From contig JAZRUG010000017.1 of assembly GCA_045652425.1 (NCBI GenBank), positions 16,003 to 80,002 of the forward strand: a DNA stretch of 64,000 nt, in the 5' to 3' direction. The position numbers and the translations under genes were made by a program. The DNA is from Eubacteriales bacterium. GTDB lineage: Bacteria > Bacillota > Clostridia > Oscillospirales > CAG-272. Within the stretch, counting starts at the first letter, position 1. The number at the start of each line of letters is the position of its first letter. Below the pieces are notes generated by a model. That model was not told the origin of the DNA. It was given only the letters and a program-made list of their open reading frames with translations, and made no database searches. Below are positions 6,217 through 59,576 of the stretch, in pieces.

Positions 6217-6857
6217 CTCATATAGTTATGGTTATACTTGAGGTTATCGGCACAATAGCTTTTGCCGTAACAGGCGCGTTTCTGTCGGTAAAAAGACACC
6301 TCGACATTTTCGGTGTCGTATTTATCGGCTGTATCACGGCTGTGGGTGGCGGTATAACAAGAGATATAATAATCGGTAAGTTTCCGCCTACGATATTTTC
6401 ACATACACCAATATTGCTGATAGCCGCAATAACCTCTGTAATAGTATTTTTGATTTCCTATCTTCACGCAGATAAGTTTGAACAGATACGCGAGAAAACG
6501 GAAAAGATAAACAACGTTTTTGATGCAATTGGTCTTTCAGCCTTTGCTGTAACAGGTACGGAAGCGGTATATCACAGCGAATACGGCGGATATTTTGTAC
6601 TTGCTGTACTTATGGGTATGCTGACAGGGGTGGGCGGCGGAATATTCCGTGACATACTTGTAACAGAAACTCCCTACGTTTTGAAAAAGCACGTATATGC
6701 ATTGGCGGCATTGATAGGCAGTATAATATACTACGTATTGCGTGGTTTTGTCGGCATCACGCTTTCTTCAATAATCGCAATGGTTCTCATATTTTCCATT
6801 CGTATGTTGGCAACCAAATATCATTGGAAACTACCCAAGGTAAAACTTGATAATTAG
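6213..6857 (+). CDS. UPF0126 (YadS/YicG, TRIC-like) membrane protein
   Basis: Two UPF0126 repeats (GGGITRDI, GGGIFRDIL) in a multi-TM protein. I prefer ATG 6213, which overlaps the LysR stop (ATGA), over the track start at 6186. Confidence 0.8.
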   Translation: MTHIVMVILEVIGTIAFAVTGAFLSVKRHLDIFGVVFIGCITAVGGGITRDIIIGKFPPTIFSHTPILLIAAITSVIVFLISYLHADKFEQIREKTEKINNVFDAIGLSAFAVTGTEAVYHSEYGGYFVLAVLMGMLTGVGGGIFRDILVTETPYVLKKHVYALAALIGSIIYYVLRGFVGITLSSIIAMVLIFSIRMLATKYHWKLPKVKLDN

Positions 6858-31148: not shown

Positions 31149-32852
31149 TTATATGGCGCTTGGCAAATATTCTACCGCCACACCTTGTCTTGTATTGAGT
31201 TTAACAGGTCTTGGCTTTGGTACTTCGGGTAGAGCGATACATCCTATGAACTTGTAGTGGATTTTGAAGTGTTGTGTACGATTCTTGCCCACGCCCTCAA
31301 TATGACAAACCTCTATGCGTTCAATTAATTCTTTGAGTAGTGGTGCTGTCAGCTTGTCCATCTCCATAAACTTGCGAACGGCGGATATGAAGTTATCCTT
31401 ATTTTGCTTAATACTGTCGATAGATAACAAACGTTCGTGGGCATCTTCATTCTTGGCTTTCAGTTCCATTCGTTCCTCTCCGTACTTTTGAGATTGAATC
31501 ATAAACCATTCGTCTGTAACTTCACCGTTTATGTTCTTCTCATAAAGTTTTTCAAAGAATACCTCAACCTTTTTCATACGAGATTTTGATTTTTGAATTA
31601 CCGACTCCAAGTGCTTTTGCTCTTTGATGGCATCCTCGTTGCTTTTCTCGGCTAACATCTCGGCAAAGGTGTCCTTATCGTCATAGAGAAACTGAGCTAA
31701 CCACCGAAGTTCCATCATCACAATTTGCTCCAAAGCATCCGCACGGATATAATGGGTGGATTTGCAGGTCCCACGATTGCCTTTGTAGTTACCGCAACTA
31801 AAGAACGGTATATCTGTTTTGTCGTGCTTTACGTTAAACCACAGTTTGCTACCGCAGTCAGCACAGTAAACTAAATCGCAAAACATATTCTTTTCAGCGT
31901 TAGTGGGTTTTGGTGCTCGACGTTTCGTTTTAGCAACTAACTCTTGCACTCGCTCAAAGGTTTCTCGGTCAATGATTGGCTCGTGAACGTTTTTGAAGAT
32001 AACCCAATTCTCTTTGGGATTATCAATGCGTTGCTTATGCTTAAAACTTTTTGAGTAAGTTTTGAAGTTGATAATATCACCGCAATATTCTTGCTGAGAT
32101 AATATCTTCGCCACCGTAGTCTTGCACCATTTATAAGGGTTCTCTTGTGTCTTTTTACCGCCACGCCCAAGCCCTTGACTTTGCCAATATGCCATCGGTA
32201 CCAAGACCTTGTTTTCTTGCAAAATGCGAGCAATCGTTTCGTTGCCTTTGCCCTCCAAACACATACGAAAGATATCTCTCACAACTTGTGCAACATTGTT
32301 GTCAATGTTCCATTTCTTTTTGTTCATAGGATCTTTCATATATCCGTAAGGCGGTTGAGATAACGGTTCTCCCGCATTTCCACGAAGTCTGTGGGATGAA
32401 CGAACCTTTCGGGAAATATCCCTTGCATACATCTCGTTCATAACATTGCGGAATGGCGTAAGTTCGTTTTCACCATCTGCACTATCCACACAGTCGTTGA
32501 CTGCAATGAAACGGATATCTCTGTCTGGGAAATAGGTGTCAGTGTAAAATCCAACTTGCAGATAATCTCGACCAATTCGGGACATATCTTTTACAATTAC
32601 AACCGACACATAACCCATATCAATATCCTCAAGTAACTTTTGAAAGCCTGGTCGATTGAAGTTTGTGCCGGTATATCCGTCATCTACATAATTACGTGTG
32701 TTACTGAACCTGTGCTCTTTGGCATATTTCTGCAAGAGCTTCTTTTGGTTGATGATGGAGTTGCTATCGTTGTCGGTTCCGTCATCACGAGAGAGTCTGC
32801 AGTATAGGGCGGTAATTCCTATTTGCTCTTTCTTTTTTGATTTCGACTGCAT
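31149..32852 (-). CDS. Large serine recombinase (resolvase N-terminus, recombinase + zinc-ribbon, DUF4368-like C-terminus)
   Basis: ALYCRLSRDDG (catalytic Ser region), VIVKDMSRIGRDY, and a Cys cluster CADCGSKLW...CGNYKG..GTC. Start at ATG 32852 behind AGGAGG. Confidence 0.9.
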   Translation of the reverse strand: MQSKSKKKEQIGITALYCRLSRDDGTDNDSNSIINQKKLLQKYAKEHRFSNTRNYVDDGYTGTNFNRPGFQKLLEDIDMGYVSVVIVKDMSRIGRDYLQVGFYTDTYFPDRDIRFIAVNDCVDSADGENELTPFRNVMNEMYARDISRKVRSSHRLRGNAGEPLSQPPYGYMKDPMNKKKWNIDNNVAQVVRDIFRMCLEGKGNETIARILQENKVLVPMAYWQSQGLGRGGKKTQENPYKWCKTTVAKILSQQEYCGDIINFKTYSKSFKHKQRIDNPKENWVIFKNVHEPIIDRETFERVQELVAKTKRRAPKPTNAEKNMFCDLVYCADCGSKLWFNVKHDKTDIPFFSCGNYKGNRGTCKSTHYIRADALEQIVMMELRWLAQFLYDDKDTFAEMLAEKSNEDAIKEQKHLESVIQKSKSRMKKVEVFFEKLYEKNINGEVTDEWFMIQSQKYGEERMELKAKNEDAHERLLSIDSIKQNKDNFISAVRKFMEMDKLTAPLLKELIERIEVCHIEGVGKNRTQHFKIHYKFIGCIALPEVPKPRPVKLNTRQGVAVEYLPSAI

Positions 32853-33082
32853 TAGTCCTCCTTTCCGGCAGTCGAACACGCTTTTCCAACTGCCATTATA
32901 TCAAATCCGCATTTTCTGTTCAAATGTGCAAATTGTTCTTTTAACGCTTTGCCAAAGCGCTGGGTGATACTTTGGTGTTCTTTGATTTTGGCAGTTTGAA
33001 AAGATGAGCTAATAATATATTTGACACCATTGATTTCATATTCGTGGTTCCGATCTACAAGTCCCACAATAAATTTGTCCAT
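32852..33082 (-). CDS. Small protein translationally coupled to the recombinase, function unknown
   Basis: 76-aa ORF with AGGAGG upstream. Its TAA shares a base with the recombinase ATG (TAATG). Confidence 0.5.
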   Translation of the reverse strand: MDKFIVGLVDRNHEYEINGVKYIISSSFQTAKIKEHQSITQRFGKALKEQFAHLNRKCGFDIMAVGKACSTAGKED

Positions 33083-33142
33083 TAGATTCCTCCTTCTATT
33101 TATGGGGTATTAGGGGTGAACCCCCCTAACAAGGTGCGTTTG

Positions 33143-33217
33143 TGGATATCCACGCACGATGCTTGCGAAGACAAGGACGTGCAAAAAATGGATATCCAAA
33201 CGTGATGCTTGCGAGAC
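33143..33217. repeat. Two ~30-nt direct repeats, each containing the GGATATCC palindrome
   Basis: tggatatccacgcacgatgcttgcgaagac (33143-33172) and tggatatccaaacgtgatgcttgcgagac (33189-33217), about 83% identical. They lie upstream of the small-ORF/recombinase operon. Confidence 0.7.
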
Positions 33218-33585
33218 TAATGACATTATGATGTAATGCCATCCCCTAAAGAAACATTGCCGTTCTACCTAAATGCAGTTCCTGCCTCGGATTTTCACCG
33301 TGACGTTGTTTCGCTCGCTATGAACAAGATCAAAGGTTATCGCAAAATCGTATCTCATTTAGACGGTCATTCAATTTTCACCCCCCTCACATAACGTCAA
33401 AAACCGAGGAAAATATGCATAGTTTTTTAAAAAATATTTTACCCCTCATGTGGTAGGCATCGAAAAAGGCTAAAACTAAACACAAAACTGAAATTATTGC
33501 AAAAAATAAAAGCCGCCACACAACATCTAAAAAGGATGCCGTATGACGACGCAGATCATAAAAGGAGTTATTTAGTTTTTTGCTG

Positions 33586-33614
33586 TTTACATTTGCTATA
33601 AAAAATGTTATAAT
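33586..33614 (+). promoter_or_regulatory. Sigma-70-type promoter of the six-gene plus-strand operon
   Basis: TTTACA (33586-33591), 17-nt spacer, extended -10 TGtTATAAT (33606-33614), about 37 nt upstream of ATG 33651. Confidence 0.55.
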
Positions 33615-33650
33615 ATTTTTAACGTATATCAACACAATGGAGATAATGTT

Positions 33651-33848
33651 ATGAATTTTGCAGAAAAAGTAAAATATGTTAGAACAGAATTAAAGTTGTC
33701 TCAAGAAGATTTGGCGCGAGAATTGGGTGTGAGCTTTGCAACTATCAATCGATGGGAGAATGGTAGCTATAATCCAAGTCGGTTAGCAAAAAAGGCTTTT
33801 GAAGACTTTTGTAGCAATCAAAATATCAAATTTGAGGTAGCAATATGA
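33651..33848 (+). CDS. XRE-family HTH protein (possible controller of the downstream R-M genes)
   Basis: 65 aa: KVKYVRTELKLSQEDLARELGVSFATINRWENG. Its stop overlaps the next start (ATGA). Confidence 0.8.
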   Translation: MNFAEKVKYVRTELKLSQEDLARELGVSFATINRWENGSYNPSRLAKKAFEDFCSNQNIKFEVAI

Positions 33849-34681
33849 GAATAGTACAAGATTTTACCGACAATGAGCTTAAGGCCGTTCTAAATGATTT
33901 TTATTCCTATTTTAAAACAGGTTTCGAATTCGAAGAGTTCTTAAAACCTTTTTTAGAGTCTATCGGTCTTTCTGAAGTTGTTGTTACCAAAAAAACAGGT
34001 GATGGCGGTATAGATTTAGAAGCGGTAAAGGAAGGCCTTTCTGAAATCAATAATGTAGATAGCGTGAAATATCGAATTCAGGCAAAAAGGAATTCACCTT
34101 CAAGAACTATTCCTCCTGAGAAAATCGATGCATTAAGAGGTAACCTTTGTTTCAATGAAAAAGGATTATTTATCACCACTGCTAAGGTATCTGACAAAGC
34201 AAAAGAGCAAGCTATTTCTAAGGATCCATCCAAACCGGTCTTTGTTATCGACGGAATTGATTTAGTCAGAATTTGCATCGACAGACAAATTGGATTTGCC
34301 TATAAACCTATATTCAGTAAAAGTGCGCTCGACTTGTTTACAAACAAAAATAAATCTCCTGAAATCAATACAAATCTTTCATCCGAGTTAAGTTGTGTTG
34401 AAAAAACAATTACAACTAACGATGTTCGTGTATACATAATTTCACTTCCAAGAATTATCGTAGACAAAATTGAAAATAATAACGAAAAGCATCCTATGAA
34501 ACTCATTGTAAACAGTGACGATTCTTATGATGTGACATTTTGTCCAAGTAGAAACTATCTTTCTCAAGTTACGAGTATATTCCGAAAATACGGATTATTA
34601 CAAGAAGACGGAACTATAGTCGAGAAAAAAGCAAAATGGGCAATTGATGCACAACAAAATATTTATTTAACGATATTGTGA
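33845..34681 (+). CDS. Mrr-cat-type PD-(D/E)xK restriction endonuclease with an extra C-terminal (possibly B3-like DNA-binding) domain
   Basis: FEFEEFLKPFLESIGL...KKTGDGGIDLEAV...YRIQAKR is the Mrr_cat signature. The C-terminal ~110 aa (VRVYIISLPRIIVDKI...) was assigned only by loose resemblance. Confidence 0.7.
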   Translation: MRIVQDFTDNELKAVLNDFYSYFKTGFEFEEFLKPFLESIGLSEVVVTKKTGDGGIDLEAVKEGLSEINNVDSVKYRIQAKRNSPSRTIPPEKIDALRGNLCFNEKGLFITTAKVSDKAKEQAISKDPSKPVFVIDGIDLVRICIDRQIGFAYKPIFSKSALDLFTNKNKSPEINTNLSSELSCVEKTITTNDVRVYIISLPRIIVDKIENNNEKHPMKLIVNSDDSYDVTFCPSRNYLSQVTSIFRKYGLLQEDGTIVEKKAKWAIDAQQNIYLTIL

Positions 34682-34688
34682 GGATACT

Positions 34689-35723
34689 ATGAATTATATT
34701 GGTTCTAAATATTCTTTAATAGATTTTTTGGAAGAGTCTATTAATAAAACCTTAAAATTGTGCGGCGAAGATAGAAAATCGTCTGAAATGGTGTTTGCCG
34801 ATTTGTTTGCAGGAACTGGCGTGGTTAGTGGTTCGTTTAAAAAACAAGGGTATTCTATAATAGCAAACGACATTCAATACTATAGTTACGTTATAACAAA
34901 ACACATGATTGAAAATAACGGAAACTTGGATAAAAAACATTGCAATGAACTTATAGATGAATTAAACCGTTTGGACGGGATAGAAGGTTTCATTTATGAA
35001 AACTATTCTTATGAAGGAACTGCAGAACAAGAATTTAGAAGAATGTATTTTTCGGAATACAATGCTAAGAAATGCGATGCAATAAGAACTACTATAGAAG
35101 AATGGCTTGTTAACGGTAAAATAACTGAAAATGAATACTATTTCCTACTAGGTTCCTTGATTAATAGCATTGACAAATGCGCCAATACTGCTTCAGTGTA
35201 TGGGGCTTTTTTGAAAAAATTAAAGAAATCCGCATTGAAAGAAATGGAATTATCACCACTTCCAATTATGCAAGGTTCTGTTGAATGCAGAGTTTATAAT
35301 GAAGATATAAGTGAGTTAATCAAAAACGTTTCCGGCGATATTCTTTATCTAGATCCCCCATACAATGCCCGTCAGTATTGCTCTAATTATCATATGCTCG
35401 AAACGATAGCCAGATATGATAATCCTAAAATCAAAGGCAAAACAGGATTAAGAAATTATGAAGATCAAAAAAGCGTGTTTTGTATGAAAAACAAGGTTGA
35501 AGCTGCATTTGCCGAATTAATTAAAAACGCAAAATTCAAATACATATTTTTAAGTTATAACAACGAGGGATTAATGTCTTTCGATACTATTGAAAAAATA
35601 ATGAAAAAATATGGCAAATATAAAGTCTATATGCAACAATATCGCCGTTTTAAAGCGGATAATGCTAGAGACTGCAAATCTGATTCAACGATTGAATATT
35701 TACACTGCTTAATAAAGGAGTAA
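34689..35723 (+). CDS. D12 (Dam)-class N6-adenine DNA methyltransferase
   Basis: N-terminal YIGSK, motif I FADLFAGTGVV, motif IV LYLDPPYN. Confidence 0.85.
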   Translation: MNYIGSKYSLIDFLEESINKTLKLCGEDRKSSEMVFADLFAGTGVVSGSFKKQGYSIIANDIQYYSYVITKHMIENNGNLDKKHCNELIDELNRLDGIEGFIYENYSYEGTAEQEFRRMYFSEYNAKKCDAIRTTIEEWLVNGKITENEYYFLLGSLINSIDKCANTASVYGAFLKKLKKSALKEMELSPLPIMQGSVECRVYNEDISELIKNVSGDILYLDPPYNARQYCSNYHMLETIARYDNPKIKGKTGLRNYEDQKSVFCMKNKVEAAFAELIKNAKFKYIFLSYNNEGLMSFDTIEKIMKKYGKYKVYMQQYRRFKADNARDCKSDSTIEYLHCLIKE

Positions 35724-35726
35724 CTC

Positions 35727-36884
35727 ATGGAAGAAATGAACATCAAAGAAGAATTGAATTTAGACGGAATCGACACAGAAATCGAAGAAAATATAGTAGA
35801 ATCTAGCGAAATTTCTATGCAAAGTTTGGAAAACACTATTGTTGTTCCGATGGACTTATCTGTAGAAATGGTTACGGCGTGGTATAAGTCAAAAAAACTA
35901 TCATTAGATCCTGTGTTTCAAAGGAGATATGTGTGGAACGATGTACTAAAATCTGCCTTTATAGAATCACTTATTTTAAATGTTCCTATTCCTTCGTTAA
36001 TGCTTGCTAACGATACAGAGAATAACAGATTTATAGTTATTGATGGAAAGCAAAGACTTAATGCTATTATAAGCTTTATTGCGCCTGAAAACGAAGGCAA
36101 AGGGTTTAGACTTAAAGGATTAAATGTTTTAAAAGAACTAAACGGTTACACTTATAAAAAATTGCTTTCTGATAGCACAAAAACTCAGTATTTGAGCAAA
36201 ATTGAGAATGCTTTAATTAAAACCAGTGTTCTAAAAAATTATAATACCGATATTCTATACTTTATATTTAATAGGTTAAATGGTGGTGGGGTCCCTCTTT
36301 CGCCTCACGAACTAAGACAGTCATTATATGCAGGACAATTTATCAACTTTATTAACGAATACTCTGCAGAATCTAAAGGTATAAGACGAATGCTTAATCT
36401 AAAGAACCCTGACAAACGTATGCGCGATGCCGAATTGTTAGTGCGTTATTATGCATTCAAATATTATGGAGCAGAGTATAACGGAAATATAAACGAGTTT
36501 TTTAATAAAACTTGTGAAAAATTAAATCTCGAATGGCAAACAAAAGCAGAAACCGTTAAAAAAGATGCGCAAGAATTTGAGTTTGCGGTGGAATTTATTT
36601 ATTCGCACTTTGGCGACGATGCTTTTAAAGTGTTCTTTGTAAAAGAGACGGGAGAAGAATATTTCGGCCCATTCAATAGACCGATGTTTGATTTACTAAC
36701 TAGTATCTTTTCCGACTCTTCAAAAAGAGAGTTTGTTGAAAAGAAAAACATCAACTTGAAAGAGTTTGTAATCAATTTATTTAAAACAAACAAGGATTTT
36801 GCAGATGCTTTCTTGCCAACAACCCACTCTAAGGAAAAGAATAATACTAGAATAACTGAGTTTACAAAAGCTCTCTTTGTATAG
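35727..36884 (+). CDS. DUF262 (ParB/GmrS-like) domain protein lacking a recognisable DUF1524/HNH C-terminus
   Basis: DPVFQRRYVWN, VIDGKQRLNAI and FNRLNGGGVPLSPHELRQS are the three DUF262 hallmarks. Confidence 0.8.
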   Translation: MEEMNIKEELNLDGIDTEIEENIVESSEISMQSLENTIVVPMDLSVEMVTAWYKSKKLSLDPVFQRRYVWNDVLKSAFIESLILNVPIPSLMLANDTENNRFIVIDGKQRLNAIISFIAPENEGKGFRLKGLNVLKELNGYTYKKLLSDSTKTQYLSKIENALIKTSVLKNYNTDILYFIFNRLNGGGVPLSPHELRQSLYAGQFINFINEYSAESKGIRRMLNLKNPDKRMRDAELLVRYYAFKYYGAEYNGNINEFFNKTCEKLNLEWQTKAETVKKDAQEFEFAVEFIYSHFGDDAFKVFFVKETGEEYFGPFNRPMFDLLTSIFSDSSKREFVEKKNINLKEFVINLFKTNKDFADAFLPTTHSKEKNNTRITEFTKALFV

Positions 36885-36895
36885 GGATATAGGAT

Positions 36896-37477
36896 ATGAC
36901 GAATGAATATCAACATCTCCAGCGAAGGCTTCAATCTATTTCTGCAACATTTGAAGTTTTAATGCCGGATGATCCGTTGGATGAGGCATTAGAAGATAAG
37001 CAAAACATAATTAAATCATATATTTTGTTATGCCACGCTGAGTTTGAAAAGTATTTCGAAGACATTGCTTTGGGGATAATTAAAAAAGCAAAGGAACTAT
37101 ATGATTCGAGGAATGAAACAAGTGAGCCGTTGCTTCATCTAGCCTTGATGTTAAAAAAAGATTTTACTAATGAAGGTGCTAAGGCAAGACTTGATAAATT
37201 GTTTTCAAATTATCGAGCACTTCTTGATAAAAATCACGGAATCAAGAAAGCAAACATCGACGAAATGTTTGCTCCTTTGGGTATGCCGATAAGTGGCATG
37301 TCCGATACATACCTAGAAGCGTTGGAAAGTTTCGGGAAGAAACGAGGACAAATTGCTCACAATGTTAAAGAGGCGTTAACTACTACATATAGTTTTTCAA
37401 TTGAAAAAACTGCAATAAATGCGTTGCTTAATGATACTTTAAGCGAAATTGATGAAAAAGCAGAGAGGTTACTTTGA
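36896..37477 (+). CDS. HEPN-superfamily-like protein (Rx4H motif)
   Basis: 193-aa all-helical-looking protein with KKRGQIAHN (R-x4-H) near the C-terminus and CHAEFEKYFEDIA in the N-terminal half. Resembles MAE_28990/RiboL-PSP-type HEPN by pattern only. Confidence 0.5.
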   Translation: MTNEYQHLQRRLQSISATFEVLMPDDPLDEALEDKQNIIKSYILLCHAEFEKYFEDIALGIIKKAKELYDSRNETSEPLLHLALMLKKDFTNEGAKARLDKLFSNYRALLDKNHGIKKANIDEMFAPLGMPISGMSDTYLEALESFGKKRGQIAHNVKEALTTTYSFSIEKTAINALLNDTLSEIDEKAERLL

Positions 37478-38268
37478 TTATGGGTAAAATAAACGACCTT
37501 GATATGTCAAAATGGAAGGAAATTAATGATGTATGGTTAGATAGTCTTTGGATAATCCCACAAAGAGATAATTCCGGAGCTCATGATGGTCATTATCATG
37601 GAAATTTTGTTCCTCAAATACCGCATCAGCTTTTGACACGATACACGAAAGCTGGAGATTTTGTTTTAGACCCTTTTGCCGGAAGCGGAACCACCTTGAT
37701 AGAAGCTCAACGGATGGGTAGAAATTCTATAGGTATCGAATTGCAACAAGATGTAGCTATGGAGGCTATTAAAAGAATTCACTCAGAACAAAGAGAAGGA
37801 ATTATAGCTGATACATTTGTGGATGATAGCAGAACCTTTGATACGAATAGAATATTAAGCACATACAATATTAAAAATGTGCAGTTTATAATTTATCATC
37901 CTCCATATTGGGATATTATAAAATTTAGTGAAGACGGAAATGATTTATCTAATGCTAAAACCTTAGAGGCATTCATAGAAAATTTCCGATTAGTTGTGCG
38001 AAACACTTCGGCAATATTGGAGAAAGGAAGATATTGTGCCGTAGTAATCGGAGATAAGTATGCAAATAGCCAACTAGTTCCGCTGGGCTTCTACTGTATG
38101 CAAGCAATGCAGCAAGAAGGGCTAACTCTTAAAGCCACGATTGTAAAGAATTTTGAAGAAACTAAGGGCAAAGCAAATCAAAAAGCCCTTTGGAGACAAA
38201 GAGCTTTGCAAAATGGTTTGTATCTATTTAAACACGAATATATTTTCTTATTCAAAAAGGAGAAGTGA
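37474..38268 (+). CDS. Amino (N6A or N4C) DNA methyltransferase, motif I before motif IV
   Basis: VLDPFAGSGTTLIEA (motif I) followed about 70 aa later by IIYHPPYWD (motif IV). 4-nt overlap with the preceding gene. Confidence 0.8.
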   Translation: MIMGKINDLDMSKWKEINDVWLDSLWIIPQRDNSGAHDGHYHGNFVPQIPHQLLTRYTKAGDFVLDPFAGSGTTLIEAQRMGRNSIGIELQQDVAMEAIKRIHSEQREGIIADTFVDDSRTFDTNRILSTYNIKNVQFIIYHPPYWDIIKFSEDGNDLSNAKTLEAFIENFRLVVRNTSAILEKGRYCAVVIGDKYANSQLVPLGFYCMQAMQQEGLTLKATIVKNFEETKGKANQKALWRQRALQNGLYLFKHEYIFLFKKEK

Positions 38269-50032: not shown

Positions 50033-52663
50033 TCAGGATTCATTATTTTTTCTACACTGTCGGACTGTTCTCCCATAAGAATTTTTACTTTCCGAAAGCT
50101 TTCGCACAAAGTCGGTTATTTCGTTACCAATGCGTGTTAATTCTTCCAGGAATTCCTTTGATGTCATACGAGAGATACCCGAATGAACCGCAGAAAATTG
50201 CAAGAGCTTATCGTCAGTTACCATACGTATACTGTAATCGGGGCCTAATTCGTGCATCATTTTTTCAATATATGCATCTGCCGTTTGATTGGCTTTGGTA
50301 TATACGACTTTAAACCCGTCGTGCATAAACTCCGAACCCTCGCCTTTTTTTACACGATATGCATCAAACACAAGTACAAGCTCGGTCTTCGTGTATGAAA
50401 CGTAGTTGCTAAGCAAGTCCATAAGTTCATCACGCGCTTTATCTATGCTGAAAAGAGATGTCTTTTTTAGATTGTCGTCGGCGTAGATAACGTTGTAACC
50501 GTCAACGATTATCATATTTCTCTGCGAACGTATCGATTTTGACTTACTCTGCTTTTCTTTCTTGTCTGCTTTTATTACCTTGGGTTCACTGTACTGCTTA
50601 CGTTTGATTGGGCCGAACAATCGAAGCATTAAAGCTTCAAGCTCATCGTCGCTTATGCTGTATTTACGCGCCAAAGTAGATGCTTTCGGGATTATTGCCT
50701 CGCCTTTAGACAAATCATCCAAGTTAACGTCAAGATGTTTGTAGTTATCAACCTCACTCCAATGTACAGTAAAACCTGCGCCGTGGGCGCAGAATACGGA
50801 GTGTGGCGGATTATCGAGGTCTGCCTCGGGATCATACTCCGTTTTGGAAACAACCTCATCTTGATTATGGCAGGGATCATATCCGTCAGAGGTGCAAAAC
50901 AGTCTGCCCTCGCCCCTTGTATATGCAATAACTTCTTTTGTGTAATCGAAAAGCGTAGATACCGGTGCTCTTCCGCATATTGTTGTACGTTCTGTGTCCG
51001 AGCTTTCAAGCTCGAATTCTGCAAATCGTGCTTGTAAGTCAGCCATAGCTCTACCTACGCATGAAGTTGGTATCTCCAATCTGAACTTGTAGTATGGCTC
51101 AAGCAAAGTACAGCCCGATTTCATAAGCCCGTGTCTGACCGCACGGTATGTTGCTTCTCGGAAATCTCCGCCCTCGGTGTGCTTAAGATGCGCCTTCCCT
51201 GCTACAAGGGTTATTTTTGTATCTGTAAGAAGCGCCCCCGTAAGAGTGCCTCTGTGGTCTTTTTCGTAGAGATGCGTCAGTATAAGCCTCTGCCAATTAG
51301 TATCAAGGGCGTTATCGGGCAAACGCGTGTCAAATATCAGTCCCGTTCCTTTTGGCTGTGGTTCAATAAGCAACTGAACTTCTGCATAATGGCGTAACGG
51401 TTCAAAGTGACCGACACCGATAGATTTTTGTGTTGCCTTTTCTTTATATAGTATTTTGCCTGCGCCAAGGGTGCAATTGATAGAAAAACGGTCGCTTATA
51501 AGCCGTTTTATAAGCTCGGTTTGTACCTCACCCATAAGTCTTGCTTCTATCTGTGAAAGTTCCTCGTTCCACATAAGGTGCAAGGAGGGTTCTTCCTCTT
51601 CAAGCTCTTTAAGCTTTGGGAAATATAATCGTGTATCGCAATTTGGCGGAAGCTGAATAGCGTATGATAATACCGGCTCAAGCAAGGGCTTTTGAGTGTC
51701 CTGTTCAAGTCCTAATCCCTGACCGACGTATGAGAAAGAAAGCCCGATTATAGCGCAAATCTCACCGGCAAAAACCTCGTCGACCTGCTCGAACTTTTCG
51801 CCCGAATAAAGTCTTATTTGACTAATTTTTTCAGTAATACGTTCCCCATCTGCCGAAATGTAGCTTATTTCATCACGCGCGGATAATTTTCCGCTCGTTA
51901 TCTTCATATAGGTCAAACGAGTCGTGCCTATATGTGATATTTTATAAACTCTTGCGCCGAAAACTTCTTGATCATAGACAGGGGACAGGGTATATCTATC
52001 CAAGGCGTCAAGAAAATAATCTACGCCTTGCATACGTAGTGCCGAACCGAAGAAGCAAGGAAAAAGTTTGCGATTAGCTATTAAATAAGATATATCTCCG
52101 TCGTCAATATCCTCGTCTGCAAGATAACTATCCATAAAGTCTTCATGAACGAAAGCTAATTTTTCTTCAAGCTCTTTGCGTTCTTGTGCTTCCATAAAGC
52201 CGACACAAAGGTTAGACAGAATATTTGAAAGTTCTTTCTCAATATCTTCCTTTAACTTTATTGCTATATCGCATTTATTAACAAAGATAAAGGTAGGAAT
52301 GTTATAGTGTTCAAGCAGCTGCCAAAGAGTTCGGGTGTGGTTCTGTACACCGTCAGAGGCGCTGATAACAAGTATTGCATAGTCAAGAAGCGCCAAAGTT
52401 CGTTCAGTTTCTGCAGAAAAATCCACATGCCCGGGAGTGTCAAGGAGGATGAAGTCGCAGTTATCGCTTGAGAATCTTGCTTGCTTTGAAAATATGGTTA
52501 TTCCGCGTTCACGCTCAATAACGTTGGTGTCGAGATAGGTATTTTTGTGGTCTACTCTTCCCAAGGCGCGTATTTTTCCCGATGCATAAAGCAACGCTTC
52601 GCTTAAAGTTGTTTTTCCCGCATCGACGTGCGCAAGAATACCGATAGTTATTTTCTTTTTCAA
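50033..52663 (-). CDS. TetM/EF-G-like translational GTPase fused to a C-terminal Rae1/YacP-type NYN ribonuclease domain
   Basis: G-motifs AHVDAGKTT, DTPGH and NKCD, with a length compatible with EF-G domains II-V. A Lys/Ser-rich linker follows. The last ~160 aa (50033-50515) read MIIVDGYNVIY...LVFDAYRVKKG...VVYTKANQTADAYIEKM...MVTDD. Confidence 0.8.
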   Translation of the reverse strand: MKKKITIGILAHVDAGKTTLSEALLYASGKIRALGRVDHKNTYLDTNVIERERGITIFSKQARFSSDNCDFILLDTPGHVDFSAETERTLALLDYAILVISASDGVQNHTRTLWQLLEHYNIPTFIFVNKCDIAIKLKEDIEKELSNILSNLCVGFMEAQERKELEEKLAFVHEDFMDSYLADEDIDDGDISYLIANRKLFPCFFGSALRMQGVDYFLDALDRYTLSPVYDQEVFGARVYKISHIGTTRLTYMKITSGKLSARDEISYISADGERITEKISQIRLYSGEKFEQVDEVFAGEICAIIGLSFSYVGQGLGLEQDTQKPLLEPVLSYAIQLPPNCDTRLYFPKLKELEEEEPSLHLMWNEELSQIEARLMGEVQTELIKRLISDRFSINCTLGAGKILYKEKATQKSIGVGHFEPLRHYAEVQLLIEPQPKGTGLIFDTRLPDNALDTNWQRLILTHLYEKDHRGTLTGALLTDTKITLVAGKAHLKHTEGGDFREATYRAVRHGLMKSGCTLLEPYYKFRLEIPTSCVGRAMADLQARFAEFELESSDTERTTICGRAPVSTLFDYTKEVIAYTRGEGRLFCTSDGYDPCHNQDEVVSKTEYDPEADLDNPPHSVFCAHGAGFTVHWSEVDNYKHLDVNLDDLSKGEAIIPKASTLARKYSISDDELEALMLRLFGPIKRKQYSEPKVIKADKKEKQSKSKSIRSQRNMIIVDGYNVIYADDNLKKTSLFSIDKARDELMDLLSNYVSYTKTELVLVFDAYRVKKGEGSEFMHDGFKVVYTKANQTADAYIEKMMHELGPDYSIRMVTDDKLLQFSAVHSGISRMTSKEFLEELTRIGNEITDFVRKLSESKNSYGRTVRQCRKNNES

Positions 52664-54235: not shown

Positions 54236-56944
54236 TCATTTCTCAAGCGAGGCACGAACCTCGATAATCCGAGCCGAAGGATCACCCCATGTTTTATAAA
54301 CGTTTATGCGTATCTTCTCTGCTGTTATACAATCAAAGCGGTGATTACGCTTACGCATAAAATTTTCGGTTTCCCATGCAACCTTGATCCACGCGTTGCC
54401 GTCAAACACTTCCACATCATATTCCTTAATGCAGGTGGGGACGTTTTTGATTTTAATGCCCGAGCAGGTTCCGGGATTTGTCATATCGGTATCAAATACT
54501 ATGCTGACGGAGTTGATTTCATTTTTTTTCTTGAATATAAGTTCAAGCCACTGTGGTAAGGCTTCGTCGGGATTTGATACCCATTCATATTCCTTCTCGC
54601 TCAAAATGCGCGAATGACCGTTAATGACGTTTTCGGGAGAGCAATTGGCAATAATATCCTTTGGTTTTTTAATTTCAAAAAGGAAGCATTTCCCACCGGT
54701 AAACACCCAGTTTCCGTTATTGTCTCTCTCACCTTGTCTGCGATAGTTAGACAGGTTTTCAAGAGAACGCCAGGATATGCCTGGAGAAGCTTCCAACCAC
54801 ACCATCAAATATGAGCCGTCTCTGAACAAGGATTGGTCGATTTTTATGTCAACAGGAAATTTCACCCAGCTTTCGCCCGGAGGCACTATACCTTTTGCCG
54901 AGCTGACTTTATAGTTTTGACCAGCTTTTGTATCCAGATCTCCCACGGGACGGGCATACACCGTAACCTCAGTGCATGTCAACTTTGACGAATGGAGCTT
55001 CAAATACAGTTGACCGATATCGCCGCGGCTTGCGTTAAAGCCGCAAACGCTTATTCTTGCCTGATCCAAGGGAACCAATGGACCGGGAGAGCCGTGCTTG
55101 GGATAGAAAATTTCGGTCCTGCTGATGCTTGATGCGGTTGCCGTGGCTGTCAGGCAGGGATCGCCCGCATCTTCGTTCTTGAGGCCGGGAATATACTGAT
55201 CGTTCTTAATAAGCAGTTGTTGCAAATCGCTAATGTGTCTTTGGTAAATTCCGCGCGGTGTCTCGTTAAGCTTGACACACATAGCTGCGGCAGTACCTGC
55301 CGCCTGCCCCAAGGTTGCAATGGTATTCTGCACACGGACCGTCCCCAATGCTATATGGGTAACGCTTACGTTTCTACCCGCAAACAGAAGATTGTCGATA
55401 TTCTTGGAATAAATGCATCGGTAAGGAATCGTGGACAGTGCAACCCTTTTTGCGCAGTAAAGAGGCCCTTCTTTTCCGGAATAAATGCCTTTCGGGTGGT
55501 GAATATCCAGTGCCCAGCCAAAATATGAAATAGCATCGTCAAAGGTGCGGCCTTCCGTACAGTCATCCTGTGTGAGAACGTAGTCGCCGATCAATCTACG
55601 CGATTCTCTGCGCCCATTGATTACATTAGCCATACGGAACGCTGTCTTTCTTACCTTCTCCTTGCCAGTCCAATAGTTTTTCAGGTGATCTACATAGCCC
55701 AGAATTACCAAAAACAGTGTATCTCGCGCTTTTTCACCGTCCCACATATCATCATAGGTGTTTGGCGCTTCCAGCCACCAGTACATGCTCGCTTTCGAAA
55801 TAACGCGACCGAACTCCTCGTCGGATTCGGGCAGCTTCGGTACCCATTCGGGGGCATGAAATTCAACGTCCTCCTCGCATTCAAAGAAAAAGGGGGCACA
55901 TCCTCCGCGGATACAGCCGCTCATAGTCTGTGTATCAGCAATAGCCGGTGCCATATCCTCGTTGTGTTGATCGGCAGCCTCGCGTCCGAATCGGTATTTT
56001 GCGCCTGCATAATAGCCTACCCAGGCATCGCCCGTGCAATCGATAAATATTTTGCCACCGTAGCGAGTTTTGGTAAGATTGCAAATATCAAGGCTTATAA
56101 CGCTTTCTATAGTGCTGTTATTCTTCATTTCAACGTCACACACGTGTGCATTACAAATAACCGTAAGGTTTTCTTCTTTAGCAACGATCTTTTCCATTGC
56201 TCTTGTCCATTCGCCGTAGCTTTCGGTCTCTCTGTCGCGGTAACGGCGTATTTCCTCGGCAATACCGCCCTCTCTTGCTCGAGGATAGGCAACCTCGGCT
56301 CCGTCGAAAGTAATACCCACCTCGCAACTGCTGTTTCCACCAAGCATGGGGCGGTTGTGGAGCAGTAAGGTTTTTATGCCGAGTCGTGAACAAGCGACAG
56401 CAGCAGGCATACCGCCGGGACCTCCGCCCGCGATAATTACGTCATAATCTCCGCCGTATGCGATATCGCGGTTAAGTCCCTTGACTTCTGCTCGCTTTTT
56501 GTGCATACGGTCAATTTCTCTGGGAGGTATAAAGTCAAAATCGTTTGTAATAAAAATAGAAGAAAAACGTCCGAAATAACCGCTCAGATCTTGAACGGTT
56601 ATTTCTGTATTTCCATCAAGAAAAAAATCGCCCGCAATTTCCCAAACCCAATCGTCTGAGGGTAACTGACCAAGTACAACTCCATTGCTTTTTCCGTTGA
56701 CGAGAAGAGTGAATGTTCCGGGATTGTGGGGGCGAAGCCAATTTCTGTCACGCACCCAGATTCTATATTTATCAGCTTTCGGTATATTAACTGTAGTACG
56801 TGCATTTTCTACCGGAATACCAGGTATGTCTGCGGCGATGAGATAGCCACTTCCCATCAAATGAACAAACTGGGTATCCTCTTTCCAGCCGCCTTTATGA
56901 TTAAAATCAATAGCATCGATCCAAATCTCATTTATTTTGTTCAT
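54236..56944 (-). CDS. FAD-dependent oxidoreductase with beta-sandwich (F5/8-type-C-like) flanking domains
   Basis: DVIIAGGGPGGMPAAVACSRLG...GGNSS dinucleotide-binding motif. Start at ATG 56944. The C-terminal ~150 aa resemble a discoidin-like module (by eye). Confidence 0.75.
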   Translation of the reverse strand: MNKINEIWIDAIDFNHKGGWKEDTQFVHLMGSGYLIAADIPGIPVENARTTVNIPKADKYRIWVRDRNWLRPHNPGTFTLLVNGKSNGVVLGQLPSDDWVWEIAGDFFLDGNTEITVQDLSGYFGRFSSIFITNDFDFIPPREIDRMHKKRAEVKGLNRDIAYGGDYDVIIAGGGPGGMPAAVACSRLGIKTLLLHNRPMLGGNSSCEVGITFDGAEVAYPRAREGGIAEEIRRYRDRETESYGEWTRAMEKIVAKEENLTVICNAHVCDVEMKNNSTIESVISLDICNLTKTRYGGKIFIDCTGDAWVGYYAGAKYRFGREAADQHNEDMAPAIADTQTMSGCIRGGCAPFFFECEEDVEFHAPEWVPKLPESDEEFGRVISKASMYWWLEAPNTYDDMWDGEKARDTLFLVILGYVDHLKNYWTGKEKVRKTAFRMANVINGRRESRRLIGDYVLTQDDCTEGRTFDDAISYFGWALDIHHPKGIYSGKEGPLYCAKRVALSTIPYRCIYSKNIDNLLFAGRNVSVTHIALGTVRVQNTIATLGQAAGTAAAMCVKLNETPRGIYQRHISDLQQLLIKNDQYIPGLKNEDAGDPCLTATATASSISRTEIFYPKHGSPGPLVPLDQARISVCGFNASRGDIGQLYLKLHSSKLTCTEVTVYARPVGDLDTKAGQNYKVSSAKGIVPPGESWVKFPVDIKIDQSLFRDGSYLMVWLEASPGISWRSLENLSNYRRQGERDNNGNWVFTGGKCFLFEIKKPKDIIANCSPENVINGHSRILSEKEYEWVSNPDEALPQWLELIFKKKNEINSVSIVFDTDMTNPGTCSGIKIKNVPTCIKEYDVEVFDGNAWIKVAWETENFMRKRNHRFDCITAEKIRINVYKTWGDPSARIIEVRASLEK

Positions 56945-57076
56945 ATTTGTGCATCCTTTCAAAATATATTCTACATCCTATTATATACTAAATACCACAG
57001 CGTTCATAAGATAAAAGAAAGAAGTAGTTGCACAAAAGATGGATTAATGCTATAATATTAGAAGATTATAAGAAAT

Positions 57077-57928
57077 GTGGTGAAATTTGTGGAGCACGTA
57101 TCTCTCAGCGAATTGATAGAAAGACTTGAAAAAGGCACAAAAATCCATATATGTATTGCGTTTTTAGGTGAGTGCGGCAACAGAAAAACAAGACTTACCC
57201 CCGGTCAAGCCATACACAACAGCCCAGTATGTCTGGCAGTCAAAGAATTGCCGAACGGATTGAAATCCTGCTACAGCTGTCGAAATTATGTACAAAAGAC
57301 AGTTATTCAGAGCCAGAAAGCTATGTCAGGCTTCTGCACCAACGGTGTGTATGAATATATAAGACCTGTTGTTTATGATGACCGCGTAATATGTGTTATT
57401 TACGTGGGAAATATTCTGCTGCCAGACCCATGCCAACGCGAAAAATTGGAAAAAATGGTAAACGGAGACCTCTTAAAAACCATGGAATCACACTCTACAC
57501 CGCAGGATTGCGTAAAGGTTGCCGACGTTTTGGAAAGCTATATCACATTTTTATTTGACCGATATGGAATCGAAAACAATATCTTCGACCCGCTGTTGGA
57601 AAACGTCAAAAACTATATAAAAGAAAACCTCGAATACGGTTTCTCAATGGATGAGCTGGCAGATGCTTTTCACTATACCCCCAAGTATTTAGGTCAAATT
57701 TTTAAAGCCCGAACCGGAAAATCGATCAAGGAGTATTGTAATCACCAAAAAATAAAGCAAGCAAAACACAATCTTACGGAAACGAATTTAAGCATCGAAG
57801 CGGTTGCGCTTCGTGCTGGATTTAACAGCGTTACTTATTTCGACCGTGTTTTTCATAAGCTAACAGGGCTTTCGCCGCAAACATATCGCTCCACCTCAAG
57901 CTCACATAAAAGCAGGAAATCCAACTAA
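57077..57928 (+). CDS. AraC-family regulator with a Cys-containing N-terminal sensor (PocR-like?) domain
   Basis: C-terminal double HTH (YLGQIFKARTGKSIKEYCNHQKI...VTYFDRVFHKLTGLSPQTYR). GTG start. Divergent from the oxidoreductase. Confidence 0.85.
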   Translation: MVKFVEHVSLSELIERLEKGTKIHICIAFLGECGNRKTRLTPGQAIHNSPVCLAVKELPNGLKSCYSCRNYVQKTVIQSQKAMSGFCTNGVYEYIRPVVYDDRVICVIYVGNILLPDPCQREKLEKMVNGDLLKTMESHSTPQDCVKVADVLESYITFLFDRYGIENNIFDPLLENVKNYIKENLEYGFSMDELADAFHYTPKYLGQIFKARTGKSIKEYCNHQKIKQAKHNLTETNLSIEAVALRAGFNSVTYFDRVFHKLTGLSPQTYRSTSSSHKSRKSN

Positions 57929-58469: not shown

Positions 58470-59576
58470 TTAATCATCATTCACATTTAATTTTAGATTT
58501 TGTATATACTTGCATTTGGGAAAATTTGAACATCCATAAAATTGTTTTCCAATATTCGCACCTTTTGTTGCAGTTCTTAAGACGAGATTGCCGTTGCATA
58601 GAGGGCATTTTAAAACTTGAGAGTCTGGGTTGTTAGATATATGTTCTTTTAATTCTGATGATGCTGGTGTTACATAATTTGTTTTGTTTTCGATGTTTTC
58701 GGTGTTGGTAAAAATACTGTCGTTGGTTTCAGCAGTTTCGTTGGCTGTAGTCTTATTAGTATCTGCCTGTATAGTAATATCTATATTAGATTTGATTTGC
58801 TGAGTAGCCTCAGTATTTAGATCATTGCATATATTAGCGATATGTTGTTCTTTCGTAGCAACATCAACTTGAGTATAAGGGTAAAGTTTATTGTAAATGT
58901 TTGTGATGTCATTTTCACTTAGCAAAACAGAGGTTGTTTGCTCAAAAAGCGTTGAAATGAGAAAACTAACGTTTTCCCTTTTGATTACACTGATATTATC
59001 ATTTTTTAATTGAAGGCTTTTTATAGTACACCTTTCAGAAAAAACAATAATTGACTTTATTGGTAATTGATCTCCTAATAATGCTTTGAGATGTTTTATA
59101 TGTGAGTGATTTTGCATAATTGGATTATAAAAACTTTCTTTATGACTTTGATTCCTGCCGGATGGCAGGGTTTGATACCAATATTTTTGGTTTTCGCTAC
59201 CAAATATCCATCCACTGTAATTTTTGCTCTCAAATACATATATTCCTTTAGAACATATCATTAATACATCAATTTCTGTAGTTTCCCCATCCTCTTTCGG
59301 AATATATATGTTAAATAGAAATTTTGCACCTTGACTTTCATAATGTTTAAGATATTTGTATATAAGATACTCACCGTATTTTCCCGTGTTATTTTTAACC
59401 GAACGATAGGACATTTTCGTGATTTTATAATATGAAGTTTTTTTGTATTCTTTATTTTTATGAATGTGAATACATACAACAATAATAATTGGTATTATAA
59501 TCGGTGATTGTACCCACAATATAATAGTTTCCCAAAAAGAGCTAAAAAACGATTGAAGTAGTTCTAATAATGACAT
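58470..59576 (-). CDS. Membrane-anchored NERD-domain protein with a C-terminal topoisomerase-type C4 zinc ribbon
   Basis: N-terminal TM helix. NERD pattern GEYLIYKYL...EIDVLMICSKGIYVFESKNYSGWIFG. N/T-rich linker. C-terminal CPLCNGNLVLR...YGCSNFPKCKY. Confidence 0.8.
   Translation of the reverse strand: MSLLELLQSFFSSFWETIILWVQSPIIIPIIIVVCIHIHKNKEYKKTSYYKITKMSYRSVKNNTGKYGEYLIYKYLKHYESQGAKFLFNIYIPKEDGETTEIDVLMICSKGIYVFESKNYSGWIFGSENQKYWYQTLPSGRNQSHKESFYNPIMQNHSHIKHLKALLGDQLPIKSIIVFSERCTIKSLQLKNDNISVIKRENVSFLISTLFEQTTSVLLSENDITNIYNKLYPYTQVDVATKEQHIANICNDLNTEATQQIKSNIDITIQADTNKTTANETAETNDSIFTNTENIENKTNYVTPASSELKEHISNNPDSQVLKCPLCNGNLVLRTATKGANIGKQFYGCSNFPKCKYIQNLKLNVNDD

Follow-up and report, generated by a model that had tools for sequence, protein, structure and literature searches.

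A Rae1-type NYN nuclease tethered to an EF-G-like GTPase in gut Clostridia: an intact member of a known fusion family with a predicted role on the ribosome

What would a ribonuclease of the Rae1 type do when it is covalently attached to a translational GTPase? The question is raised by a 64,000-nucleotide stretch of DNA from a Eubacteriales bacterium (GCA_045652425.1, contig JAZRUG010000017.1, positions 16,003 to 80,002; hereafter the window), whose list of open reading frames (ORFs) includes, on the minus strand at 50033-52663, an uninterrupted ORF of 876 amino acids (aa) plus stop with a TTG start. The original prediction took its product for a TetM-like GTPase fused to a Rae1/YacP endoribonuclease and proposed that the GTPase delivers mRNA cleavage to the ribosomal A site. 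The analysis presented here identifies the fusion as a real, intact member of a known, uncharacterised family, so that the architecture itself is not a discovery. Judged from its sequence, a ribosome-targeted RNase appears to be its most reasonable function, whereas the premise that Rae1 cuts in the A site is outdated, having been withdrawn by the group that proposed it.

A Pfam domain scan found EF-G-type domains and NYN_YacP within the one ORF, as expected of a genuine GTPase-nuclease fusion, and all of the motifs originally quoted (AHVDAGKTT, DTPGH, NKCD, IIVDGYNVIY, LVFDAYRVKKG, VVYTKANQTADAYIEKM and MVTDD) were present. A five-domain EF-G/Tet fold occupies residues 1-600 and is followed by a 50-aa extension, a basic disordered linker of about 70 aa and the NYN_YacP domain (Table 1). 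The EF-G/TetM likeness noticed earlier therefore holds for motifs and fold, but not for the assigned length of ~700 aa, as the GTPase body ends near residue 600. Clostridia 'Tet/TetM-like + NYN_YacP' fusions have been described by Atkinson 2015, BMC Genomics (PMC4342817) and Matelska 2017, NAR (PMC5499597), and Additional file 8 of the former contains examples from R. albus 7, E. eligens, E. rectale, B. proteoclasticus, C. cellulolyticum, C. lentocellum, C. phytofermentans, C. thermocellum and two D. hafniense strains. With these sequences the window protein has in common the signatures GHFEPLRHYAEV, KHTEGGDFR, SVFCxHGAG and LVDGYN, and with the published family at large its architecture, domain order and full-length homology. 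Nothing essential differs: the window copy comes from an uncultured ruminant-gut Oscillospiraceae lineage and has a tail 15 aa longer. The earlier papers placed the GTPase under 'Tet', whereas here it falls into a separate sister clade, and Atkinson 2015 proposed that the fusions be tested for rRNA RNase ability (PMC4342817).

The C-terminal domain scored 126.2 bits against PF05991, well above the gathering score of 24.6, and the last 160 residues aligned to residues 3-147 of B. subtilis YacP (5MQ8/5MQ9; phmmer, E 1.7e-19), reproducing each motif pair that had been matched by eye. Across 62 diverse family members, 37-48% identical to the query, residues D721, Y723, N724, D767, T789, D796 and D818 were invariant. 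In the alignment to 5MQ8, D721, D767, D796 and D818 correspond to Rae1 D7, D53, D81 and D104, so that all four catalytic Asp residues, whose conservation had been put forward as a check, are retained throughout. The catalytically dead Rae1 used experimentally is the D7N D81N variant (PMC10351889), and D721 and D796 are the aligned counterparts of the residues mutated in it. The window protein also has the features by which Matelska 2017 defined the family (PMC5499597), namely GYN after the first catalytic Asp and four conserved Asp. A catalytically competent nuclease is the best explanation of these sequence features.

The NYN domain shares 32-36% identity with the stand-alone Rae1 proteins of Bacillus, Listeria, Staphylococcus and C. 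difficile; for the Rae1 of Acetoanaerobium noterae the figure is 40%. In common with Rae1/YacP it has the NYN_YacP fold, a DGYN motif, all four catalytic Asp and a long C-terminal helix. A canonical orthologue, however, is a free protein of ~170 aa that binds the ribosome transiently and is encoded in an mrnC-rlmB-yacP-sigH context, whereas here the nuclease is covalently tethered behind a 716-aa N-terminal part and its gene lies between unrelated GGDEF and MFS neighbours. The window holds no other NYN or translational-GTPase ORF, and no stand-alone NYN was found within 10 kb of the fusion gene in 81 related loci. A tblastn search of the plasmid collection with the NYN domain returned one complete chromosome, that of A. 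noterae, which displays the canonical rlmB-yacP-sigH arrangement with a free Rae1 only and is not shown to be a fusion carrier. By analogy with Rae1, the domain is likely to cut mRNA on ribosomes that have stalled or collided.

The GTPase body has an intact catalytic core, with A11, V13, D14, G16, K17, T18, D75-H79, K130 and D132 all invariant in the same 62 members. An AlphaFold2 (AF2) model with a predicted local distance difference test (pLDDT) score of 73 matched EF-G structures over ~690 columns (Foldseek, E 1e-48), and these matches confirm the fold of domain III, which had scored just below its Pfam threshold. The tip loops of domain IV, GVGHFEPLRHYAEV (416-429) and GKAHLKHTEGGDFR (489-502), are invariant or nearly so within the family and set it apart. 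Loop I reads GxGH[FY]EPL[RK]HYAEV in the family, PNPFWA in the protection proteins and SGGRGQYGHV in EF-G; loop III reads GKAHLKHTEGGDFR, GLYYSPVSTPADFR and GSYHDVDSSEMAFK, respectively, and the loop III counterparts in the TetM and EF-G alignments are YYSPVSTPADFR and SYHDVDSSEMAFK. Fold, G motifs and presumably the ribosomal binding site are those of EF-G, but the two proteins are only 26% identical, their domain IV loops differ, and the EF-G equivalog model TIGR00484 returned 255.1 against a cut-off of 659.4. Fusion carriers also encode canonical EF-G, EFGII, LepA, RF3 and TypA (Atkinson 2015, PMC4342817, Additional file 2). Because the carriers retain a separately encoded EF-G, the fusion protein is an additional factor.

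Over residues 1-596 the window protein is 52% identical to another fusion and 46% identical to an unfused relative from L. salivarius (46-52% within the family), as opposed to 32% for TetB(P), 29-31% for Tet(M), Tet(O), Tet(S) and an Otr(A)-like protein and 26% for EF-G. In a neighbour-joining (NJ) tree (582 columns, 200 bootstraps), a simple method by which the deep branching order is not secure, fused and unfused family members formed one clade with 100% bootstrap and the protection proteins another with 99.5%, as separate sister groups. The best explanation of these sequence comparisons is that the GTPase represents an EF-G-fold subfamily of its own, the sister group of the tetracycline ribosomal-protection proteins, and is presumably ribosome-dependent.

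Between GTPase and nuclease lie two further segments. The extension is common to fused and unfused members and is missing from Tet protection proteins and EF-G; Y610, S622, F624 and G628 are invariant in it, and residues 596-645 gave no Pfam match and only chance matches in a PDB profile search (best E 0.08). The tether that follows varies considerably: in 141 members linker length ranges from 54 to 192 aa (median 85), E/K/R/A/S are abundant, and the last 30 aa have a net charge of about +4. The Lys/Ser-rich stretch recognised from the start corresponds to residues ~690-716 (KVIKADKKEKQSKSKSIRSQRN), for which disorder is predicted. Within the disordered linker, and confined to fused members, is a short conserved helix (residues 672-684; 50615-50653) with the family pattern ELxxIFxRTYG, which reads ELEALMLRLFG in the window copy.

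The family is large and its members are mostly fused. The 120 best matches in a collection of 5.8 billion proteins were 857-883 aa long, 81-92% identical and without exception carried PF05991; after clustering at 50% identity, 140 of the 150 best representatives were fused to NYN, and both parts lay in a single ORF in all 81 related loci, which rules out the sequencing frameshift that might have joined two genes artificially. With one genome per GTDB species, at least 580 confirmed NYN relatives were recovered. Every one of the best 80 was a fusion; they came from Oscillospiraceae, Ruminococcaceae, Lachnospiraceae (Blautia, Dorea, Coprococcus, Roseburia, Oliverpabstia and Faecalimonas), Acutalibacteraceae and other gut or rumen Clostridia, and the survey called for originally thus revealed an architecture common in gut Clostridia. 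Among the matches listed, the nearest species representatives (a sheep-colon metagenome-assembled genome, MAG, and an Oscillospiraceae MAG) were 81% identical to the window protein, and cluster mates extend the family to Mogibacterium and one Erysipelotrichia MAG. Cultured carriers include Agathobacter rectalis and Monoglobus pectinilyticus; the A. (Eubacterium) rectalis and Monoglobus proteins are 45-48% identical to the window protein over 96-97% of its length, and complete genomes of cultured species hold the fusion. Because the two parts are joined in nearly all representatives and in every locus, across many families of Clostridia, the sequence record indicates that the fusion is maintained by long-term selection.

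Of the ten representatives that lack NYN, at least two derive from fused genes by truncation or frameshift. P0248 (on a 2.7-kb contig) and P0249 (719 aa, sharing one contig with the 138-aa P0422) were considered as unfused forms and rejected on these grounds, their cluster mates being 869 and 901 aa long. Genuinely unfused are P0254, P0262 and P0265 among those ten, plus the L. salivarius protein, a 644-aa relative with the same extension and 46% identity (L. salivarius pHN3, NC_017499.1, 4400-6917). The latter is present on megaplasmids in 44 L. salivarius records, is annotated as a Tet protection protein and is encoded divergently from an additional S14 gene, rpsN, and from one for a 'putative metal homeostasis protein', a neighbourhood that hints at a link to alternative ribosomal proteins or zinc limitation. 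Two unannotated human-faecal 'Bacteriophage sp.' contigs (MT835514.1, 17016-17759; MT835563.1, 7212-7964) encode the extension and NYN at ~36% identity, and may represent bacterial DNA in a virome bin.

How the two activities cooperate is suggested by what is now known of Rae1. Rae1 is now believed to cleave between collided ribosomes, at a site 12 nt upstream of the A site. On such ribosomes Rae1 makes tmRNA substrates, and it stays bound too briefly to be caught in a structure (PMC13622287). Of the two ribosomes in a B. subtilis disome, the stalled one is non-rotated and the collided one rotated/hybrid, with the inter-ribosome mRNA beside uS3 of the collided ribosome (PMC10897456). The reading that we favour, and to which we give about an even chance, is that the fusion is a GTP-gated, covalently delivered Rae1 that acts on stalled or collided ribosomes and cuts mRNA. 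In its GTP form the protein would dock in the factor-binding site of a ribosome unable to proceed, most plausibly either a rotated ribosome that has collided with a stalled one ahead of it or a stalled ribosome whose A site is accessible, and would place its His/Lys/Arg-rich domain IV loops and its C-terminal extension at the decoding centre. The tethered NYN would then be held at high local concentration near the mRNA entry, that is, where the ribosome ahead has its tail end, and would cut the mRNA on the entry side, at the same position now proposed for free Rae1. Hydrolysis of GTP (His79) would release the factor, and the ribosomes on the truncated mRNA would be passed to trans-translation or ribosome-associated quality control (RQC). 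We infer the docking site because a collided ribosome that is rotated and cannot translocate is in the state that EF-G-shaped factors bind; the substrate and the order of events are likewise inferred.

SmrB of E. coli and MutS2/RqcU of B. subtilis, which bring an SMR domain to the inter-ribosome mRNA (PMC10897456, PMC13622287), would be functional analogues only. In MutS2 a nuclease-type SMR domain is flexibly linked to an NTPase in one polypeptide, much as the nuclease is linked here to a GTPase, but the domains are unrelated (SMR versus NYN, ABC/MutS ATPase versus translational GTPase), and SmrB and MutS2 recognise the 30S-30S interface, whereas the fusion would use the factor-binding site.

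Genomic context lends further support to a role on stalled or collided ribosomes. In nine loci (L010, L011, L019, L020, L021, L025, L041, L063 and L073) the fusion gene is directly followed on its own strand by a ylmH-like gene, and the distance between the two ranges from an overlap of 7-10 nt to a gap of 123 nt, a larger overlap in L073 reflecting an imprecise ORF start call. The neighbour encodes a protein of 248 aa with a YlmH_RBD match (E 9.5e-10) and covers nearly the full TIGR03069 model with a score under the cut-off. YlmH is an S4-domain ribosome-associated quality control factor in B. subtilis (PMC11317155), and the linkage to the fusion gene is not mentioned in that paper. The nine loci belong to one Oscillospiraceae clade in which the fusion proteins are 57-80% identical to each other and the other flanks vary, and the fusion gene and ylmH therefore appear to form a conserved two-gene unit there.

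Several observations weigh against this interpretation. The ylmH linkage is limited to a single clade (9 of the 81 loci) and is absent from the window, and no neighbour is conserved family-wide across the 81 loci, which agrees with a self-contained gene. Unfused relatives bearing the same extension exist on L. salivarius megaplasmids and in some Clostridia, and the GTPase must therefore have a job of its own apart from the nuclease. The geometry is argued from likeness to EF-G and TetM, and the inter-domain placement in the AF2 model is unreliable (predicted template-modelling score, pTM, 0.49) and was not used. The substrate could be mRNA, rRNA or tRNA, and a literature search found no experimental study of the fusion protein. 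A bolder version of the collision reading, which we regard as tentative and rather doubtful, is that the fusion is a self-contained nuclease for collisions or stalls that takes on the task of Rae1, perhaps replacing it, in many gut Clostridia, and that the GTPase represents a housekeeping rescue lineage of which the protection proteins are a specialised offshoot.

The alternative that survives best, although we consider it unlikely, is that the protein acts on rRNA, with the GTPase probing immature or defective 30S or 70S particles and NYN trimming or cleaving 16S rRNA for maturation or disposal. A parallel may be drawn with yeast, where the PIN-domain nuclease Nob1 cleaves pre-18S rRNA and is stimulated in this by eIF5B/Fun12. 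To judge from EF-G and TetM, the basic, conserved domain IV loops and the extension probably touch the decoding centre; the unfused L. salivarius relative adjoins an alternative S14 gene, rpsN. YacP itself was first predicted to function in rRNA/tRNA processing on account of the mrnC-rlmB(yacO)-yacP operon (PMC5499597). Every experiment on Rae1, however, has reported translation-dependent mRNA cleavage and not rRNA processing. Furthermore, a tether that is long, variable and disordered fits a loosely placed target outside the ribosome, not one precise rRNA phosphodiester, and the ylmH linkage points to rescue of stalled translation.

We hold it to be very unlikely that the protein is a tetracycline ribosomal-protection protein with an added RNase domain, an extra or novel resistance mechanism suggested by Atkinson 2015 (PMC4342817). 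The automatic NCBI name of many members implies resistance (RefSeq homologues are called 'TetM/TetW/TetO/TetS family tetracycline resistance ribosomal protection protein'), the best NCBIfam match is tet_protect (NF012153), the best PDB sequence matches are TetM and TetO, and in the tree the protection proteins are the family's sister group. The nearest characterised clade is indeed that of Tet(M)/Tet(O), which shares the five-domain EF-G-like fold, the intact GTPase motifs and a similar length of the GTPase body. Nevertheless, the score against NF012153 was 400.9 bits for a cut-off of 775, and all specific Tet models failed (268.6 versus 1100 for the M/W/O/S model NF033148; 226 versus 1420 for the Tet(M) model). 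The TetM likeness originally noticed thus stands as a best match, but the protein fails the Tet cut-off and has no tetracycline-displacing loop. In TetM, Pro509 lies in the tetracycline site, at C1054 (PMC8161019). The query loop III, AHLKHTEGGDFR, differs throughout from its TetM counterpart YYSPVSTPADFR and has K494 at the Pro509 position; a Lys occupies this position in nearly all aligned family members, whereas S-P-x-S-T was found in five of five reference protection proteins. Loop I differs as well, identity to Tet proteins (29-32%) lies far below that within the family, and the family is a clade apart with full bootstrap support. Tet proteins have a short C-terminal tail and a mobile context; the fusion has an extension, linker and NYN and sits in a chromosomal, core-like context with no adjacent efflux partner or mobile element. 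The RefSeq Tet name of the A. rectalis fusion (WP_306784676.1) is a probable misannotation.

Anti-phage translation shutdown had also been envisaged for this gene, and we give very little credence to a toxin-like or anti-phage effector that when triggered would cut ribosome-bound RNA. The Rae1 preprint speculates on defence against ribosome-stalling phage mRNAs (PMC13622287), the window contains a defence island at a distance of 12 kb, and single relatives stand beside barstar genes or a BrnT/CopG pair. The fusion gene is outside that island, however, and separated from it by seven housekeeping genes; neither it nor its immediate neighbours have a PADLOC match, and no immunity or antitoxin partner recurs in the 81 loci. 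Its broad and apparently vertical spread over Clostridia families is unlike that of patchy defence genes, and in the phage collection the only matches, at 36%, are the two unannotated contigs from faeces. To read the fusion as an artefact of assembly or frameshift, or its NYN as decayed to a non-catalytic remnant, is almost certainly wrong, given that the few split or truncated database entries (P0249 with P0422; P0248) stand against single ORFs in all 81 loci, 140 fused representatives of 150, complete genomes of cultured species and invariant catalytic Asp.

The feature map of the gene agrees with the original description of a monocistronic gene with its own terminator in a core-like context: promoter, ribosome-binding site and terminator were recognised at the level of consensus patterns (Table 1), and the neighbours are unrelated. 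The immediate neighbours encode a GGDEF membrane protein and a major facilitator superfamily (MFS) transporter, and beyond them lie genes for an FAD oxidoreductase, a DcuC-type carrier and an M20 peptidase, all membrane or metabolic functions without relation to the fusion gene. These observations support a stand-alone unit in a core-like context. The C-terminal tail peculiar to the window copy is probably due to a displaced stop codon, and no function is inferred from it. A look-up of the exact sequence of the window protein gave no record. The DNA sequencing runs matched were bovine, sheep and manure gut metagenomes, containing at most 21% of the sampled words, and no RNA sequencing run contained the locus.

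Table 1. Coordinates of the fusion gene, its signals and the domains of its product in the window, with one ylmH-like neighbour from a related locus.
Feature	Position	Strand	Basis
Complete coding sequence: translational GTPase, C-terminal extension, linker and NYN_YacP nuclease	50033..52663	-	ORF list; Pfam
Promoter-like site TTGAAC-17-TATAGT with TG (extended -10)	52725-52697	-	Consensus scan, pattern level only
Shine-Dalgarno AAAGGAGG, 7 nt before TTG start	52678-52671	-	Sequence, pattern level only
G domain, residues 3-225; G1 AHVDAGKTT, G3 DTPGH (catalytic His79), G4 NKCD, G5 GSAL	51989..52657	-	Pfam GTP_EFTU E 6.7e-51
Domain II, residues 246-314	51722..51928	-	Pfam EF-G_D2 (246-309), GTP_EFTU_D2; beta-barrel in AF2 model
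Domain III, residues 329-400	51464..51679	-	Pfam EFG_III 24.6 bits, just under gathering score 27
Domain IV, residues 403-516	51116..51457	-	Pfam EFG_IV; tip loops family-specific
Domain V, residues 520-601	50861..51106	-	Pfam EFG_C E 1.7e-18
C-terminal extension, residues 596-645: GYxPCHN..YDPxxDxxNPxxSVFCxHGAGxxVxWxxV...H	50729..50878	-	Conserved; family-specific
Flexible tether, residues 646-716, with conserved helix ELxxLxxRLFG (672-684)	50516..50728	-	AF2 pLDDT <50 over 650-713; K/S/R-rich basic end
NYN_YacP (Rae1-type) endoribonuclease, residues 717-861 (Pfam 718-861)	50081..50515	-	PF05991 E 1.7e-36
C-terminal tail NSYGRTVRQCRKNNES, 15 aa, peculiar to window copy	50036..50080	-	Close homologues end ...RKLAESKK
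Intrinsic-terminator-like hairpin GAGGCTGT..ACAGCCTT then T-run, 18 nt past stop codon	49995..50015	-	Pattern level
ylmH-like gene, example	10926-11669 in L041	same as fusion gene	Pfam YlmH_RBD

Apart from ylmH, the neighbours that recur across the 81 loci were discarded as generic (ABC ATPases, histidine kinases, MATE-like transporters) or as local housekeeping synteny, recognised by eye as rimO/miaB-type, pgsA-type and recA genes, and several clusters proved to be spurious antisense ORFs of high-GC genomes. Upstream of an 87%-identical orthologue, by ~400 bp and divergent from it, are tandem barstar (RNase-inhibitor) genes (GCA_015064605.1, L001, 8864-9605); because no matching neighbour cluster recurs in other loci, this pair is probably a coincidence. 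In A. rectalis (NZ_CP143948.1, L083) a BrnT toxin/CopG antitoxin pair is located just upstream of the fusion gene, at 6310-6818.

Elsewhere in the window, the FAD-dependent oxidoreductase (54236-56962, minus strand, 908 aa) has a C-terminal NedA-like galactose-binding domain and is adjoined by an AraC/PocR regulator at 57077-57928, a region that looks like a carbohydrate-related locus. The minus-strand gene at 58470-59576 combines a NERD nuclease-related domain with a topoisomerase-type zinc ribbon and gave a weak PglW-like PADLOC match. The segment at 31149-38268 is low in GC (0.33-0.34) with reversed GC skew; it begins with a large serine recombinase on the minus strand (31149-32879), followed on the plus strand by an Mrr-type restriction endonuclease, a D12 N6-adenine methyltransferase, a GmrSD_N/DUF262 protein, a RiboL-PSP HEPN protein and an N6/N4 methylase, and looks like a mobile restriction/defence island unlinked to the fusion gene.

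These findings have practical consequences for the way in which the family is named and counted. The Tet product names given to its members, which are abundant in human and livestock gut Clostridia, appear to be wrong, and in view of the sequence evidence against a Tet function, resistome surveys that rely on product names or on loose thresholds may over-count tet genes. Published surveys of Rae1 distribution relied on hmmsearch, state no filter for the size or architecture of Rae1 and probably pool fused and free forms; the presence or absence of a free Rae1 in carriers is relevant to the organisation of the pathway in Clostridia.

Rae1 has newly become central to a Gram-positive collision-rescue pathway (CART, 2026 preprint), and the fusion represents a natural experiment on nuclease delivery, in which a Rae1 anchored by nature to an EF-G-like body offers a trapping tool. 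If the nuclease is indeed GTP-gated and anchored in this way, a GTPase-locked form could yield the first structure of a ribosome-bound Rae1-type nuclease.

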